Shown here piece by piece: positions 3,822 through 56,801 of a stretch of DNA of 64,000 nt. Position 1 is the first letter of the stretch, and each line of letters opens with the position of its first letter. Position numbers and translations under genes: made by a program. This DNA comes from a virus (Duplodnaviria > Caudoviricetes): IMG/VR virus record IMGVR_UViG_3300019742_000001, one strand, 5' to 3'. The notes beneath the pieces are model-generated. The model saw only the letters and a list, made by a program, of their open reading frames with translations, did no database searches and had not been told where the DNA came from.

Positions 3822-4244
3822 TTATCCTCTCAATTCATTTACTAATTTTTCCAACCAATTGACATAAGTCTCACCATCAACACGATTTTTAAGATACTCA
3901 TCTGATAATGAATTACTCTCGACAAGTTCTAATCCAATATCGATATCATCGTGATCTAAATACAAAGATGAAATCTCTTCTGTCTCTGTATAAACCTCAA
4001 AATATTTTAATGTAGGGTTATGGTCTGAATCATACCAGTTCGGTAATGCAGTAGAATGGTTATGATCAATATATTTTGTACCATCTAATACAACCTCATA
4101 ACACTCACCATCATCACGGGCAAATGATACCTCAACGATCATACCTTTGTCACCAAAAATACCATCCTCATAGATACCTTTTTTCGTTTTACATAATATC
4201 TTGTTACCACCTTCTAATAAACTATGTAATTCATTTCCTGTCAT
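3822..4244 (-). CDS. hypothetical protein
   Basis: 140 aa ORF with RBS. Confidence 0.7.
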   Translation of the reverse strand: MTGNELHSLLEGGNKILCKTKKGIYEDGIFGDKGMIVEVSFARDDGECYEVVLDGTKYIDHNHSTALPNWYDSDHNPTLKYFEVYTETEEISSLYLDHDDIDIGLELVESNSLSDEYLKNRVDGETYVNWLEKLVNELRG

Positions 4245-30500: not shown

Positions 30501-31055
30501 TTAAGGTGGATGTTCTTCTATATACTTTTCTAATATAGATATTCTGTGTTCTAACACATCGATTCGGTGTTGTTGGTTTGTTGATGTTGTTGCAACATCA
30601 ACTTGTGATGCCATCATATCACATCTAATCGTGTTCAGGGTATCGGATAATTGTGTTCCATCATGATATATCTGTGTTGATTGTATATCATAAAGATCGG
30701 CTACTATCTCATCTAAGACAACATCTAATGAGGTGTCTCTAAATCTGATCTGATCTGCTTGAAGGTTACTTATCACACTACCATCAATCACAGTAGTAGT
30801 AGTAGTATTATTAATAAAACCTGTATTAAGATTTGTGATATCAACACCCACACCACCCGTATTGAGACTGTCTATTGATGGGATAGGTTCTGGTATGACA
30901 GGAGTATTTGGTGTTATATCCAACCCAAGTCTTCGCAATGAGTCATCAAATGATTCTTCGTCATCAAATGATTCTTCGTCATCAAATGATTCTTCGTCAT
31001 TAGTAGTCATCGGTGCTCCATCTATCAGTATTATATGTTCTCCATTCTGGTTCAA
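30501..31055 (-). CDS. acidic low-complexity protein with C-terminal coiled coil
   Basis: DEESFD repeats; RIDVLEHRISILE. Confidence 0.65.
   Translation of the reverse strand: MNQNGEHIILIDGAPMTTNDEESFDDEESFDDEESFDDSLRRLGLDITPNTPVIPEPIPSIDSLNTGGVGVDITNLNTGFINNTTTTTVIDGSVISNLQADQIRFRDTSLDVVLDEIVADLYDIQSTQIYHDGTQLSDTLNTIRCDMMASQVDVATTSTNQQHRIDVLEHRISILEKYIEEHPP
30943..30996 (+). repeat. 18-bp tandem repeat x3
   Basis: TCATCAAATGATTCTTCG x3. Confidence 0.95.
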
Positions 31056-31539
31056 CCCAATCAGAATAACTTACTGTTCGTTCTCGTTCTCGTTCTCTTT
31101 CTATGCTCAGTTCTTGTGCATATCTGATTAATCGTGATGTCGTATCGTCTGAACCATCTTCTAATTCATCGTCTGATCTCCATGATTGTACTGGAACACC
31201 ATCAGGAATATCATCTTCTTCAATAGGTTCATCATTCCATTCGGTAGGTTCACCAGAAACACCTAACCGATTAATTCTGGTATCATCATCAATATCAGAT
31301 TCTAAATCAAATGGGTCAATATCTACAATAGACGGTTCTACTGTTTGTGACACTGTTTGTGACACTTCTTCCACTAAATGCCGACCAAATTCTTTGTCCA
31401 ATAGATCAAAAACATTTGATCCATCACCACCATCAGAAAGAATGAACTTTCTCCATTCGTCTAACATTTGATGGTAGAATTCGCCCATATGTTGAATTTC
31501 AAAATCATCATAATCATAATCATAATATTCCATAATCAT
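31000..31539 (-). CDS. acidic hypothetical protein
   Basis: D/E-rich; ERERERER tract. Confidence 0.65.
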   Translation of the reverse strand: MIMEYYDYDYDDFEIQHMGEFYHQMLDEWRKFILSDGGDGSNVFDLLDKEFGRHLVEEVSQTVSQTVEPSIVDIDPFDLESDIDDDTRINRLGVSGEPTEWNDEPIEEDDIPDGVPVQSWRSDDELEDGSDDTTSRLIRYAQELSIERERERERTVSYSDWVEPEWRTYNTDRWSTDDY

Positions 31540-32612
31540 TCTTCTTTCGAGTATAAATTTAGAATTATTTCGTTTGACTTACCACGATCATAATAACTGG
31601 TGATTTTATCACCGTCAAGCAGTGATTTAACCACATCTTCAATCTCACTGTATATAATTTTAAACTCTTCAATTGTTAAATAACCCAACTTAACAGTCTT
31701 TAATAATATGGCAGATGATAATGGGTAGATTACTTTACCTGTTGTTAATAACTCATGTGCTTCATATAATGCCCTCAAAGAATGAGATAATGATTTCCAA
31801 TCATTACAACCCATTTGTGCCGCAGTGTGTGATCGTTTACCGTATTTCTCATATTCATTTGTGATTCGTTCCTTAAAGGTGTCCAATAAAATTGTAGATT
31901 GATGTTCTTTCTTTGCTACTGTCAGAAAAAGATCACCATTTGATCTCGCATTTAGTGATATATAATCGTCACCCTTTGAATCTTGACTCTGACACTCTTC
32001 AATTAGATCAGCAAGATCAAGATCACCAAGTGTAGTTGTTTCACCAAGTTCTCTCCGATCTTCAAGATACACCAAAATGTTAAGTAATACAGTTAATCGG
32101 GAACCTTTTATCCCATATTTCATTGACTGACTACTGGCGAATCCTACAAAACCTTCAACCTTATTGGGATTATATAGGAATTGGTAGTTTTCAACCACAC
32201 CTTCCATCAAAGGATCTGCAAATATTACGTGTTCCATATTAAATGTTGAGAATAGAACGGACAGTGCATTGGAATCACCATCAGACATTAACTTGATCCA
32301 CTCTTGGATAGACCACAGTTCAATGTCTACGTCATCCTTAGAGTTTTTTGTGTCATCGTCACCACTCTGATAACGGAATAAGTTGGGTGTTTCACCTAAC
32401 AGACAAGAATCTTTCATTGGTAAGAAAATACCTTTGTAATCACTATCAGATTCAGGTGTTTCTGTGCCGTGAAGTCGTGAACCACTCTTACAAACATACA
32501 ATAGTTTATGTGGAGCTGTTAATGCGTTACAATATTCAATAACTTTGTAATCACTCCACGTTGACGTATTCTTTGTCTCTACTCTTTTTCTAAAATCAAC
32601 AGAACTTCCCAT
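31536..32612 (-). CDS. Pol-beta-superfamily nucleotidyltransferase (T4 NrdC.11/YcgL-like)
   Basis: SGSRLHGTETPESDSDYKGIF; WKSLSHSLR. Confidence 0.8.
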   Translation of the reverse strand: MGSSVDFRKRVETKNTSTWSDYKVIEYCNALTAPHKLLYVCKSGSRLHGTETPESDSDYKGIFLPMKDSCLLGETPNLFRYQSGDDDTKNSKDDVDIELWSIQEWIKLMSDGDSNALSVLFSTFNMEHVIFADPLMEGVVENYQFLYNPNKVEGFVGFASSQSMKYGIKGSRLTVLLNILVYLEDRRELGETTTLGDLDLADLIEECQSQDSKGDDYISLNARSNGDLFLTVAKKEHQSTILLDTFKERITNEYEKYGKRSHTAAQMGCNDWKSLSHSLRALYEAHELLTTGKVIYPLSSAILLKTVKLGYLTIEEFKIIYSEIEDVVKSLLDGDKITSYYDRGKSNEIILNLYSKEE

Positions 32613-32893
32613 TGTAAATCCCTATCATCAGGGTCAACTAAATGCCCTTCACCAAGATCCATTAAAACACCACGTGCTCCGTGAAATTTTGCCGACTCAC
32701 CTACACAGTGAGAAAACTCTTCATATAGATCAATATCTTCACGGTCACACTCATCATCACCATAGTATTGAGGGTCATCTTGCATCAGAAATCCCTCCTC
32801 ACCAGCTTTTTCATTGTAATGTACATCATATACACCAAGAGCAAAGTCTTTATGTTTCTCTAACCATTCAAAAAATATTTCTTCATTATTCAT
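32579..32893 (-). CDS. hypothetical protein
   Basis: Acidic 104 aa ORF. Confidence 0.6.
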   Translation of the reverse strand: MNNEEIFFEWLEKHKDFALGVYDVHYNEKAGEEGFLMQDDPQYYGDDECDREDIDLYEEFSHCVGESAKFHGARGVLMDLGEGHLVDPDDRDLQWEVLLILEKE

Positions 32894-33038
32894 TAATATC
32901 TATCTCCATATTTCTCTTTAATAACTGCCTCAACAGTAATACTTTTACATTTGTCACAGTATTTAGATCCATTTGGTAAAGTTGATAGGTTAGGATTACC
33001 ACAATAAATACATCCTTTTAACTGACACGGTGTAACCA

Positions 33039-33770
33039 TTATGAATCCCTCCCATCTATAAACTTTTGAGTTGTTCGTATTCTACTTCTTACATCCATAC
33101 ATGTCAACACTTCATTGAACACACAACCACTATCAAGGTTAATACGACCTTGGTCTTTGTTATCTTCATTGTATTTAATCATTTCATATCGTTCCATTGG
33201 TGTATGTCCGTGAACAATAACCCTGCCTTTCATTGGTGTGCCTTGTGAGTAAAGGAATTTGTCCCGTATCCATAACAGATCGTGTAACTGTTGTTCTTCC
33301 ATAGGATAGTTTGGATCTATACCAGCGTGAACAAACACAAACTCATCTTCTTCGTATGCATATTTAAGGTTATCATAAAAATTTTGGTGTGATTCGGGTA
33401 GGTCACTAAATGATAGATCACCTTCTATTCCAAGGTTATCACTATAAGAATCTAATGTTACCGTACCACCATTGAACATAAACATACTGTGGTCATCATT
33501 TGACATTCTATCCCAACCACCTGAATTTACTGATCTTTTTAGATAGTTGAGTAGCATACTTTCGTGGTTGCCCATCAAAAAGACACAATTGTACAGTTCC
33601 ATTAGTTCAATTAAATACTCAATGGTTTCGAATACTCGTGGACCACGGTCAATCATATCTCCAAGAAAGATCAAAGTGTCATTCGGTGTGGGTGACACTT
33701 TGTCAATTAAGGATTTCAATGTATTAGCGCAACCATGTACGTCCCCGATAGCAAGTAACCTTCCTCTCAT
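33039..33770 (-). CDS. calcineurin-like Ser/Thr phosphatase-family metallophosphoesterase
   Basis: GDVHG, GDMIDRG, GNHE, HAG, HGHT; start reassigned to MRGRLL with AGGAG RBS. Confidence 0.9.
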   Translation of the reverse strand: MRGRLLAIGDVHGCANTLKSLIDKVSPTPNDTLIFLGDMIDRGPRVFETIEYLIELMELYNCVFLMGNHESMLLNYLKRSVNSGGWDRMSNDDHSMFMFNGGTVTLDSYSDNLGIEGDLSFSDLPESHQNFYDNLKYAYEEDEFVFVHAGIDPNYPMEEQQLHDLLWIRDKFLYSQGTPMKGRVIVHGHTPMERYEMIKYNEDNKDQGRINLDSGCVFNEVLTCMDVRSRIRTTQKFIDGRDS

Positions 33771-33809
33771 TTCATAACTCCTTTTAAAAATTGAACTTTT
33801 TGTGATTTT

Positions 33810-33817
33810 TATAAATA
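33810..33817 (+). promoter_or_regulatory. late promoter TATAAATA for the LAGLIDADG gene
   Basis: Exact match 30 nt upstream; GGAGG RBS follows. Confidence 0.7.
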
Positions 33818-33847
33818 CATATAACAACCAATCATAGGAGGTTATAC

Positions 33848-34450
33848 ATGGAAACAAAATCTATAATTTATGGTACTCTATTAGGTGACGCTTACATACC
33901 AAAACCAAGGATAATAAAAACCAAGAGTCGTGGAGGTCAGAACAATAATCTCAGATACACCCATTCCAAGAAACAACAAGATTGGGCTTTATACAAGGCT
34001 GTGAGAATAAATATGCCTTTCACTGTATACCAACGAGACAGATACGATAAACGAACAGGTAAAACACATGGTTCTTTTGAGATAATCCATTCCGCTAATT
34101 CGTATTTTAATGATATTAGAGAGACATTTTACCCCAATGGAACCAAGATTGTTACCCAAGAAATTCTTGATGTTTTAACACCAGAGGCTATTGCTGTTTG
34201 GTATTGTGACGATGGTAATTTATATACTAACAAAAAACAATACCTTTGTCATCTTACCCTCTCAACCAATAGTTTTAGTGATGGTGAGAGGGCATTAATC
34301 ATAGATTATTTCAAATCCAACTATGGTCTTAATTTCAAATCAACAACTCAAGGTGCCATTAGATTAACTAACAAATCACAGGCTGAATTATTTCTATCAC
34401 ATTTTGGTCAATATATACCTGAATGTATGAAATATAAAACTCTGATTTGA
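33848..34450 (+). CDS. free-standing LAGLIDADG homing endonuclease
   Basis: IIYGTLLGDAYI and IAVWYCDDGNL motifs; antisense to its neighbours. Confidence 0.9.
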   Translation: METKSIIYGTLLGDAYIPKPRIIKTKSRGGQNNNLRYTHSKKQQDWALYKAVRINMPFTVYQRDRYDKRTGKTHGSFEIIHSANSYFNDIRETFYPNGTKIVTQEILDVLTPEAIAVWYCDDGNLYTNKKQYLCHLTLSTNSFSDGERALIIDYFKSNYGLNFKSTTQGAIRLTNKSQAELFLSHFGQYIPECMKYKTLI

Positions 34451-34479
34451 TCGCCAATGGCAAGCAACCTTCCTTTCAT
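34450..34479 (-). pseudogene. orphaned original 5' end of the phosphatase gene (MKGRLLAIGD)
   Basis: Encodes 9 of the same first 10 residues as 33741-33770, with different synonymous codons. Confidence 0.85.
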
Positions 34480-34480
34480 T

Positions 34481-34726
34481 TCATATCACCCATCCGTTAT
34501 CAACCAGTTTTACATTGTTAAAATATATTGATTTATAATCTTTAATCTTTTTTGTGATTTCAGGTGATCTAAGATCATCACCCAATGTTGTGTTAGGATT
34601 CAAATCAATAATCTTATATTTGATATCCTCTCCGTGAATCAACTGAATGAAATTACCACCCCTATCAGGTTTGATTTCAAATACATTAACTATACCAGTT
34701 TTTGTGACCATTATTAGTTGATTCAT
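34481..34726 (-). CDS. hypothetical protein
   Basis: ORF in run. Confidence 0.6.
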   Translation of the reverse strand: MNQLIMVTKTGIVNVFEIKPDRGGNFIQLIHGEDIKYKIIDLNPNTTLGDDLRSPEITKKIKDYKSIYFNNVKLVDNGWVI

Positions 34727-34727
34727 T

Positions 34728-35609
34728 TCAACTACTTATCCTTTCATCGGAAATTTTGATGTAGTCATCTTGGATCTCATACCCTATGTATTTCCTGTCC
34801 AATGATAACGCAACTTTTGCCGTTGTTCCACTACCCATGAACGGATCAAGAACAATTCCACCTACAGGACAACTTGACTGTATTGGGTCAATGATAAGTT
34901 CAGGTGGAAACACAGCAAAATGTGCTCCTTTGTATGACCTTGTAGAAATATCCCACACTGTAAACTTTGGTCGTGTTGGAACTTCCCCTGCCATTATACG
35001 TTCACGCATCTTTTCATAGTGTTTGTCTTGACTCTCACTTGAAAGAGCAAATCCGTCCTTATCGTTCTTTCCTTGATCTTTTCTCTCGGCAAGATTGTTC
35101 TTAGAGAAAGCCCTTTTTATAGAGATTTCTTTCTGTGGTACCCGTGGTTGGTCAAAATAATATTTTTTCTTTTTCACGAACATAAACAGTTTTTCGTGAT
35201 TAGTCCAAAATCTATCTCTGGCTGACATAGGTTGAGGGTTTGGTTTTGACCAAATGATTTCGTTACGCAAAATCCAACCTCTGTCTGACATAGCAATCTC
35301 AAATCTACTAGGTATTTGTAACAACCCCTTGTTTTTATACGTATCACCGATATTCACCCAACACACACCTTCTGGTTTAAGTGTTCGATAAACCTCATCA
35401 AATATAAGACATAAGTTCTCAATATATTCTGCTGGTGTCGGTTCCATCCCCAATTGTTTAAAGTCATCTGTGTAACTTCTTAGGTTGTAATATGGTGGCG
35501 AGGTGACACACATATCAATTGAACCTTCTGGTAATTGTTTCATTCCTTCTATACAATCACAGTTATGAATTATGTTAGTTTCCATTATATCTCCAATGTT
35601 TTGTGTCAA
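34728..35609 (-). CDS. N4-cytosine/N6-adenine DNA methyltransferase (beta class)
   Basis: CVTSPPY, HAVFPPELI-like HFAVFPPEL, VLDPFMGSGTT; start likely METN. Confidence 0.9.
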   Translation of the reverse strand: MTQNIGDIMETNIIHNCDCIEGMKQLPEGSIDMCVTSPPYYNLRSYTDDFKQLGMEPTPAEYIENLCLIFDEVYRTLKPEGVCWVNIGDTYKNKGLLQIPSRFEIAMSDRGWILRNEIIWSKPNPQPMSARDRFWTNHEKLFMFVKKKKYYFDQPRVPQKEISIKRAFSKNNLAERKDQGKNDKDGFALSSESQDKHYEKMRERIMAGEVPTRPKFTVWDISTRSYKGAHFAVFPPELIIDPIQSSCPVGGIVLDPFMGSGTTAKVALSLDRKYIGYEIQDDYIKISDERISS

Positions 35610-55551: not shown

Positions 55552-55742
55552 TCACTGTTTTGTTCAAGAGCAACACGAACACATTGAATATATTCACGAT
55601 CTGCTTCATCCAAGACAGTCCAACACTTGGCGATGTTTTCAACGAGATCTTCAACTTGTTTTTTGTTGGTTAGATGATCGTTTTCTTCCATCATTTCTTG
55701 GAGTTTATCCAAACGATCTTCTGTCAATTTTTTAATGCTCAT
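55539..55742 (-). CDS. hypothetical protein
   Basis: Coupled ORF. Confidence 0.6.
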   Translation of the reverse strand: MSIKKLTEDRLDKLQEMMEENDHLTNKKQVEDLVENIAKCWTVLDEADREYIQCVRVALEQNSEWNV

Positions 55743-56515
55743 AATGTCACCACCTTGTTTGGGTTAAAATCACTGTTTTCTATGCCATTTTCGTAATTCA
55801 ACGGATACCCTTGAGGATTACATATAATTCGTGTTTTGTCTACCATATAATCAAAACCGTCATGAGTATGACCGTGAATCCAAAGTTCTGGTTTGTATTG
55901 TTCGATCAAATCTTCCCATCGATTACCAAAACAAACATTTAACGGACTACCCTCAAATTTAGGAGATAATGACTTCGGATGAGGATAGTGATGTGTTACA
56001 ACACATAATCTCATATCTGGATGGTTATGTCTATAATAATGCATCTTTGAAGCAAGAAAAGTCTTAGATTTCCTACCCCATGCAATACCATTAAGATTTT
56101 TTTCATCCATCAGGTCATATATCATACGAAAATCATTTAATCCGTGTTGTACTGTTAACCCAATAGATCCATTTGATTCATCCCACCAACCAGTTGATCC
56201 TATAAACACAACTCCACCAATACAAATATCATCTTCAATGAGAACATGTATCTTATTATTAATATGTTTAATGTATTTCAACTCTTTGTCTAATGTTCTC
56301 CGTGTTGTACCATAATATTCATGGTTTCCAGAAACAAAGATAATTCTCTTACCTGAATCTTCTTGTATACGAACTAGATCATCAGTGATGTTATCACAAC
56401 CTGAAATATCCCCTGATAACACTAATATATCAGCAGGGGTATTAACAATTTCATCATATAATGATGTGATCTGTCCGAATTCAAGATGTAGATCTGAGCA
56501 AATTTGCACTCTCAT
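55739..56515 (-). CDS. calcineurin-like metallophosphoesterase
   Basis: SDLHLEF, SGD, GNHEYY, THH, HGHTH. Confidence 0.9.
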   Translation of the reverse strand: MRVQICSDLHLEFGQITSLYDEIVNTPADILVLSGDISGCDNITDDLVRIQEDSGKRIIFVSGNHEYYGTTRRTLDKELKYIKHINNKIHVLIEDDICIGGVVFIGSTGWWDESNGSIGLTVQHGLNDFRMIYDLMDEKNLNGIAWGRKSKTFLASKMHYYRHNHPDMRLCVVTHHYPHPKSLSPKFEGSPLNVCFGNRWEDLIEQYKPELWIHGHTHDGFDYMVDKTRIICNPQGYPLNYENGIENSDFNPNKVVTL

Positions 56516-56801
56516 ATAATTTCCTTATTTGTTCAACACCCAACCTCATTTTATTTACAGCAGATGGATTTGCTGAATGGATTAAAATGCGTGGTGGAAC
56601 AAAATCATTAATGGCAACTTGTTCCTCAATCCATAAGAGAACATCATTACCTGTACCGATACCATCATCGTCACCCAAATCGTGGTCAAGTGAGATATGG
56701 GTTACTTCCCCTGTCTCTAATAGTGCAATTGCTTGTGATGGATCAAACACACGATACCAATCTTCGGGAGTCTTTCTTTCATCATCAAGAAATACTTTCA
56801 T
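56481..56801 (-). CDS. cyclic-phosphate-processing receiver-domain protein
   Basis: KVFLDDER, SLDHDLG, IHSANP. Confidence 0.8.
   Translation of the reverse strand: MKVFLDDERKTPEDWYRVFDPSQAIALLETGEVTHISLDHDLGDDDGIGTGNDVLLWIEEQVAINDFVPPRILIHSANPSAVNKMRLGVEQIRKLYESANLLRSTS

Follow-up and report, generated by a model that had tools for sequence, protein, structure and literature searches.

An antisense LAGLIDADG endonuclease gene between two copies of a phosphatase gene start in an uncultured T4-like phage

Homing endonucleases in essential coding sequence are usually said to hide in self-splicing introns or inteins, or to sit between genes. The gene for I-SceI lies in a group I intron in mitochondrial rDNA, and enzymes of the I-SceI family recognize an asymmetric site of about 18 to 22 bp and cut it with 4-nt 3' overhangs. 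Mitochondrial gene hybrids known as 'mORF' hybrids have been described for atp6, atp9, cox2, and nad3 of Glomus sp. (PMC3630166) and, as that paper relates from the original report, for atp6 of Allomyces macrogynus. In these hybrids an endonuclease ORF, often of the LAGLIDADG type, lies in the coding region without an intron and carries a foreign gene terminus, by which the gene stays whole; the native terminus remains as a diverged duplicate, to which the inserted copy is similar in protein and divergent in nucleotides (PMC3630166). Partial N-terminal duplications of atp9 have also been described in the fungal mitochondrial literature.

The free-standing Seg and Mob proteins of T4-type phages show intronless homing: double-strand-break repair spreads the endonuclease gene and co-converts markers beside it, and the target of the resident allele has a different sequence (PMC2988022). 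Some phage genes are split by an endonuclease gene, as with mobE in nrdA of Aeromonas phage Aeh1, mobA in T4 gene 60/39, and a seg gene in gene 43 of phage 25 (PMC2988022). The same T4 review mentions neither a duplicated gene start nor LAGLIDADG enzymes (the string 'duplicat' is absent from its text), and a recent survey of endonuclease genes in phages is likewise silent on stubs of the kind reported below. A literature search, with most subscription journals outside its reach, found no description of a LAGLIDADG clade that targets phosphatases.

The repeated gene start and the endonuclease gene

We analyzed a 64-kb stretch of DNA (the window) from microbial mats; it belongs to a T4-like phage, uncultured and ~240 kb in size. 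An earlier note on this DNA had claimed that the start of a phosphatase gene is duplicated around an antisense LAGLIDADG gene, with five codons synonymously changed. Reading of the sequence and a 33/41 repeat bore this out. The features of the locus are as follows, in window coordinates.

33039..33770, minus strand: calcineurin-like metallophosphatase gene, intact, 243 aa (PF00149, E 9e-19)
33741..33781, minus strand: repeat copy B, RBS-proximal bases and the working first ten codons, MRGRLLAIGD (repeat alignment)
33771..33847, no strand: divergent spacer, 77 nt, from endonuclease start to phosphatase start (layout common to L007, L008, and L009)
33778..33783, minus strand: AAGGAG, ribosome-binding site of the restarted phosphatase (sequence reading)
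33810..33817, plus strand: TATAAATA, T4-late-promoter-type box, 30 nt before the endonuclease ATG (perfect match)
33836..33841, plus strand: AGGAGG, endonuclease ribosome-binding site, 6 nt before the ATG (sequence reading)
33848..34450, plus strand: LAGLIDADG homing endonuclease gene, intact, two-motif, 200 aa (PF03161)
34408..34479, minus strand: stub ORF of 23 codons plus stop, ten phosphatase codons followed by antisense read-through (sequence reading)
34450..34490, minus strand: repeat copy A, 11 nt plus the stub MKGRLLAIGD, 33/41 identity to copy B, ending exactly at the Asp codon of GDxHG
34481..34726, minus strand: 81-aa ORF, the upstream neighbor (no Pfam match)

The 81-aa ORF ends in a stop codon at 34483-34481 on the minus strand, and its final codons contain the old ribosome-binding bases of the stub, whose ATG follows one base on, at 34479. 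The stub (ATG AAA GGA AGG TTG CTT GCC ATT GGC GAT, 34479-34450, minus strand) encodes MKGRLLAIGD. Beyond GAT (34450) its frame is antisense to the 3' end of the endonuclease gene and meets a stop after 23 codons (34408); base 34450 is common to the GAT of the stub and the stop codon of the endonuclease. The stub ORF is probably a relic. The intact phosphatase gene starts at 33770 on the minus strand with ATG AGA GGA AGG TTA CTT GCT ATC GGG GAC GTA CAT GGT, and carries the motifs GDVHG, GDMIDRG, GNHE, and GHT. Its start reads MRGRLLAIGDVHGC with AAGGAG ahead (33783-33778), in agreement with the previous report that the restarted gene has a ribosome-binding site of its own. A GDxHG-type motif, in a few cases with A or S for the first G, lies within the first 10 to 40 residues of all 60 homologue N-termini that we inspected. 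Elsewhere in the window, an ORF at 55742-56524 gives a second, weak match to the phosphatase profile (E 1.4e-4) and has no endonuclease beside it.

The two starts align as a 41-nt repeat (34490-34450 versus 33781-33741, minus strand; 33/41 identity) that takes in RBS-proximal bases, the ATG, and nine codons, giving MKGRLLAIGD in one copy and MRGRLLAIGD, followed by VHGC, in the other. It includes 11 nt 5' of each ATG, of which nine are identical, and both copies are preceded by TATGAA, as noted before. Runs of identity within the repeat are all 10 nt or shorter. Apart from the stub copy, no 41-mer on either strand of the 64-kb window resembles the gene start at 26/41 or better, and for this reason a chance origin of the repeat is excluded. 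The coding parts of the copies differ at six positions, five of them synonymous third-position changes and one a K/R replacement (P = 0.018 for at least five of six at third positions). We therefore take both copies to have diverged under protein-level selection, as alleles in different genomes, and not by decay of one of them in place.

The endonuclease gene is antisense to the surrounding minus-strand operon and has its own start, RBS, and stop. Residues 5-169 match PF03161 (LAGLIDADG_2; E 3.5e-33, 115 bits versus a cut-off of 25), with the LAGLIDADG motifs GTLLGDAYI (D14) and WYCDDGNLY (D121/D122). In an alignment of 23 endonuclease homologues, G9, D14, D121, D122, and G123 are invariant. 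The nearest solved structures are I-SceI-type monomers, PDB 1r7m and 6x1j, with weak similarity (E 5e-7 at best), and a Pfam search of the endonuclease locus found no Hint domain.

The earlier note had also placed a late promoter in a mobile cassette. The box TATAAATA is indeed present, but on the plus strand, so that it faces the endonuclease and not the phosphatase. Because of this strand and its position 30 nt ahead of the endonuclease ATG, we assign it to the endonuclease, which it would drive. Elsewhere in the window, three copies are followed at 28-34 nt by an ORF start on their own strand, and the sequence is not enriched across the window (6 found versus 9 expected); the position of the boxes relative to start codons, and only that, is suggestive of a promoter role. 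A scan of 33500-34800 for sigma-70 promoters and terminators gave nothing above chance. At 30501-31539 the window also has two adjacent ORFs for very acidic proteins with short tandem repeats (DEESFD three times; ERERERER).

Related loci, stubs, and an empty allele

The closest homologues of the endonuclease, in L007-L010 (76, 55, 52, and 51% identity), are all antisense and directly upstream of a Metallophos gene. The spacers of L007-L009 are like that of the window, with an RBS and a same-strand TATAAATA for the endonuclease and AAGGAG for the phosphatase; the box is lacking before the antisense endonuclease of L010. The spacer thus appears, from this shared layout, to travel with the endonuclease. 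In L012, L013, and L092-L097 (42-46% identity) the orientation is sense, and the endonuclease stop abuts or overlaps the phosphatase start. We scanned 170 loci with a clade profile and called their phosphatases by motif scan; an initial phosphatase HMM had missed divergent Metallophos genes, for example that of L010. Loci scoring above 240 bits always abutted a GDxHG phosphatase start, and the lower-scoring ones (~150) never did. The endonuclease lies directly 5' of such a start, in either orientation, in 16/16 distinct clade loci (the window, L007-L010, L012, L013, L092, L094-L097, L172, L174, L175, and L178), and in none of the ~150 more distant relatives of the enzyme. Among these 16 loci the phosphatases fall into at least three subfamilies, and the genes upstream are of many kinds. 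By this genomic association, the clade appears to be specialized on the 5' end of phage metallophosphatase genes.

Several loci of the clade have features of their own. The endonuclease gene of L010 (3501-4226) translates whole only with TAG read as Gln, and this phage therefore probably uses a stop-codon-recoded genetic code. L009 has a second, weaker Metallophos gene (1812-2504) just upstream of the endonuclease, such that the element lies between two phosphatase genes. L013, L096, and L097 share a conserved mini-ORF, MEF(V/C)IFV(V/I), ~20-50 nt 5' of the ATG of their stub-less sense endonucleases; it may represent either the remains of a stub or a leader with a regulatory role.

Phosphatase stubs are present at six other distinct loci, L172, L092, L175, L094, L174, and L178, all in sense orientation and all ending at (G/A/D)(D/E) codons: ...AIGD in L172 and in L092/L093, ...AIGE in L175-L177, ...VLGD in L094, ...AID in L174, and ...LDD in L178. 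Each is fused in frame to the endonuclease core, and the endonuclease is followed at once by a full phosphatase gene with a new start; relatives without a stub start M-K-E-Q-I-L-L-G-T. The earlier claim that the break falls within GDxHG thus found support, both in the window stub, which ends at the Asp codon, and in the same stub, endonuclease, and restart layout at these six loci. That all sense stubs are in frame with the endonuclease has P of about 0.004-0.012 if the joins were random. The clearest of the sense loci is L172, where the stub MESKFVPRRIVAIGD and the new start MNSQFKPRRIVAVGD have 11 of 15 residues in common; nine codons differ synonymously and only two are identical. The nearest relatives of the L172 phosphatase are 53% identical, too distant for a comparison of its stub with endonuclease-free alleles.

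In the endonuclease tree, stubs occur in at least four lineages (the window; the L172/L092/L175 clade; L094; L174). The stub of the window stands inside an otherwise stub-less antisense clade, and L092 and L175 keep the same junction although their endonucleases have diverged. Five sense and four antisense members of the clade have no stub, and a stub is therefore not an obligatory product. In L178 (1044-1256) the restarted phosphatase reads ...LISLGDT followed by CVTPDTLITTKDGYKKIKEI..., a sequence that resembles an intein's N-terminal splice block and would lie at the second metal-binding motif (GDxxDRG). If so, the same phosphatase gene was invaded twice, at two conserved motifs.

One relative provides an occupied and an empty allele. 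L011 encodes the same 238-aa phosphatase as L007 (238/238 identical) without an endonuclease gene, and the upstream ClpP flank is identical at 139/139 positions, up to the ClpP stop codon. The insert in L007, ~620 nt of endonuclease and spacer, lies between the ClpP stop and the phosphatase RBS; there is no stub, and the left junction falls at the stop codon of the upstream gene. We observed that the last 13 codons of the L007 endonuclease (4065-4103) are the antisense of the ClpP 3' end, recipient sequence that is identical in L011, and the insertion has therefore replaced the native C-terminal tail of the enzyme. Over the 717-nt phosphatase gene the two alleles differ at five bases. Three of these are synonymous, at the third positions of consecutive codons 6, 7, and 8, immediately before GGT GAC (P = 0.002 for the clustering). 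Between the insert and GD, 4/43 positions differ, versus 2/687 in the remaining gene. The cluster could record gene conversion that extended from the insert as far as a break near GD, could consist of changes that make the target immune, or could reflect both.

The endonucleases of the window and L007 are 76% identical in protein and 77% in DNA, whereas the flanking proteins are less similar (ClpP 61, phosphatase 46, 104-aa protein 41, DHH 50, and 181/169-aa protein 44% identity). This difference between 76% and 41-61% indicates lateral movement of the endonuclease.

We also looked for endonuclease-free alleles closer to the window, a check that the earlier note had named; L011 is such an allele for the relative L007, but none was found for the phage of the window itself, either among contigs with the exact phosphatase or in four mat metagenomes. 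Every contig with the exact phosphatase has the identical arrangement, three of them matching the window fully over 1800 nt. Contigs from four microbial-mat metagenomes carry the occupied arrangement with zero differences, and none of these assembled contigs has a joint that skips the endonuclease. The syntenic loci L004, L005, and L006 (phosphatases 53-59% identical) have ClpP or a methylase followed directly by an uninterrupted phosphatase gene. The nearest endonuclease-free phosphatase is 59% identical to that of the window, too distant to point to a donor or a recipient. Among 50,697 phage records there was no close nucleotide relative, just a weak methylase match, and IMG/VR scans with the phosphatase, the 81-aa protein, and the exact 24-nt stub sequence returned no matches. 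The 81-aa ORF is absent from L004 and L005. In L004 both small ORFs that flank the phosphatase region, of 81 aa (34481-34726) and 48 aa (32893-33039), are missing, which marks this neighborhood as a hotspot of small-gene gain and loss.

How the layout may have arisen

We hypothesize, and think it likely, that the locus arose by intron-free homing at GD|xHG, in which the RBS and first ten codons of a donor were brought in and the start of the recipient was left behind as the stub. The endonuclease would be a free-standing, I-SceI-like LAGLIDADG enzyme. Its cut would most likely fall in endonuclease-free alleles within metal-binding motif I, on the GD|xHG codon boundary or beside it, ~30 nt into the gene, and an endonuclease-bearing genome would serve as the repair template. 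The right-hand broken end would pair with the donor phosphatase gene, and leftward synthesis would copy the donor's first ten codons, RBS, spacer, and endonuclease gene. The 81-aa ORF of the recipient would have had no counterpart in the donor, and the left end would thus have been sealed where it broke, with homology slight or absent. This would have stranded the recipient's original RBS and ten initial codons as a dead stub and made the gene in use a hybrid of donor start and recipient body, with repeat copy B probably derived from the donor. Because the element brings a complete translation start, no splicing would be needed.

The same process could give loci with and without a stub. A left end joined at the break would leave one, as in the window; resected further, it would leave none. 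With one and the same upstream gene in donor and recipient, intronless homing of the ordinary kind would result, which may explain L007 and other stub-less loci. In sense orientation, translation of the endonuclease from the old start would persist only where the join is in frame, a restriction that would account for the in-frame position of every sense stub. What we infer from these sequences is where the cut falls (from junctions and a conversion tract only), which way transfer ran, how the left end was joined, and that the resident site would be immune. A donor with another upstream gene would not be expected to yield the 9/11 match ahead of the two ATGs; the donor may have shared the 81-aa gene junction, or chance and RBS constraint may account for the match.

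A donor-derived start must escape cutting, and the earlier note had proposed that its codons were recoded for this purpose. The synonymous differences would be explained equally well by cleavage resistance or by a diverged donor allele copied in during repair, and the changes beside GD in L007 and L011 would fit both. We could extract by eye no shared 'immune' spelling of the endonuclease-linked sites across the 16 loci; the enzymes are too diverged for a single immune rule to be expected. The mobile cassette proposed in the earlier note did not hold as a fixed unit, as the left border varies: in L007, with an endonuclease 76% identical to that of the window, the insertion is intergenic and stub-less, with its junction at the upstream stop codon.

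Alternatively, the stub could be a working part of the element, serving as left homology arm and, in the sense relatives, also as the translation start of the endonuclease, so that stub, endonuclease, and restarted 5' end home as a unit into any phosphatase cut at GD|xHG, whatever lies upstream. A common end motif of the stubs, seen in no fewer than four endonuclease lineages, would be expected of such a unit, as would the in-frame fusion of every sense stub and the junction shared by L092 and L175 despite the divergence of their endonucleases. The short runs of identity (10 nt or less) in the window repeat would, in addition, hinder its loss by repeat recombination. However, the window alone has a stub in the antisense subclade, and its closest relative, L007, has none and a left junction elsewhere; the in-frame fusions could be mere survivors of selection for endonuclease expression; and an arm of 30-41 nt is short for homologous repair. 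On balance we regard this account of the window as rather unlikely. We put forward somewhat less doubtfully, and still tentatively, a general heritable layout in which the element carries the gene's first codons and translation signals, the stub acts as homology arm (and, in sense orientation, as translation start), and the carried copy is respelled to avoid cutting and recombinational loss. If it were true, one LAGLIDADG clade would track GDxHG in several phage lineages and in several metallophosphatase subfamilies unrelated to one another.

It seems to us very improbable that the gene start was duplicated locally in tandem, independently of an endonuclease that landed between the copies later, and that the differences arose in place. 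The repeat does take in 11 nt 5' of the ATG with 9/11 identity, as a local duplication would. Yet a dead stub should drift at all codon positions, and five of the six changes are synonymous; the ~20% divergence needs a long time, and the stub has acquired neither frameshift nor stop. The stub also ends exactly at the endonuclease stop codon, at the same protein motif as the stubs of six unrelated loci.

Group I introns follow a 5' exon that ends in U. We found only noise for Rfam intron families in 32500-35500, even at E up to 10 and with no RF00028-type match, and no Rfam intron at gathering scores in seven related loci. That a group I or II intron, or another join at the RNA level, links the stub at 34450 to GTACATGG at 33740, making the upstream copy a real first exon, is hardly credible: the would-be exon does end in U (GAU) and the join would restore MKGRLLAIGDVHG in frame, but the hypothetical intron (34449 to 33741) would end ...GGGGAC, in C and not G, the antisense endonuclease leaves only 77 nt of non-ORF sequence for a ribozyme, the downstream copy, complete with AAGGAG and ATG, repeats an exon, which an intron does not need, and relatives without a stub have the same spacer and a complete gene. 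The earlier note's intron-less reading accordingly stands.

Comparison with known systems

The endonuclease resembles I-SceI in its PF03161 domain and its two LAGLIDADG motifs with conserved acidic residues, features that imply a site and a cut of the type usual in this family; unlike I-SceI, it is free-standing in a phage, and its similarity to the solved structures is weak. As in Seg and Mob homing, the endonuclease gene lies outside any intron or intein and adjoins a conserved target gene, and the L007/L011 pair behaves exactly in this way. The T4 enzymes are of the GIY-YIG or HNH type and may cut far from the site of insertion, whereas here the enzyme is a LAGLIDADG protein and, to judge by the stubs, insertion took place at the presumed cut. 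The genes split by mobE, mobA, and seg likewise have a free-standing endonuclease inside a conserved phage coding region and keep their function without splicing. In contrast to the window, where a ten-codon upstream piece is replaced by a duplicate and nothing reassembles, both halves of those genes are translated and reassemble as subunits.

The stubs can be viewed as natural footprints, which map the probable cut site of the clade to the 14-nt stretch GGN GAY NTN CAY GG. Ten of its 14 bases are fixed by the universal metal-binding motif, and the stretch would be a candidate target for new rare-cutting enzymes. The layout also accounts for some odd annotations, namely short orphan ORFs, N-terminally extended endonucleases, and phosphatases with chimeric starts.

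The closest precedent appears to be the mORF hybrids, in which, too, an endonuclease ORF is flanked by a duplicated gene terminus with one copy used and the other a relic. The two differ in that mORF hybrids replace the 3' (C-terminal) end of genes in organelle genomes, and the element of the window replaces a 5' end in a phage. Because the 5' end is replaced, the element must bring an RBS and a start codon. A further difference is that the phage endonuclease can be antisense, and that in the sense relatives the stub donates the translation start of the endonuclease. By this analogy, the phage case may be regarded as the 5' mirror image of the fungal hybrids. This locus and its relatives would represent a third route in phages, in which an element brings a replacement for the gene part that it displaces, a route documented so far mainly for the 3' ends of fungal mitochondrial genes.
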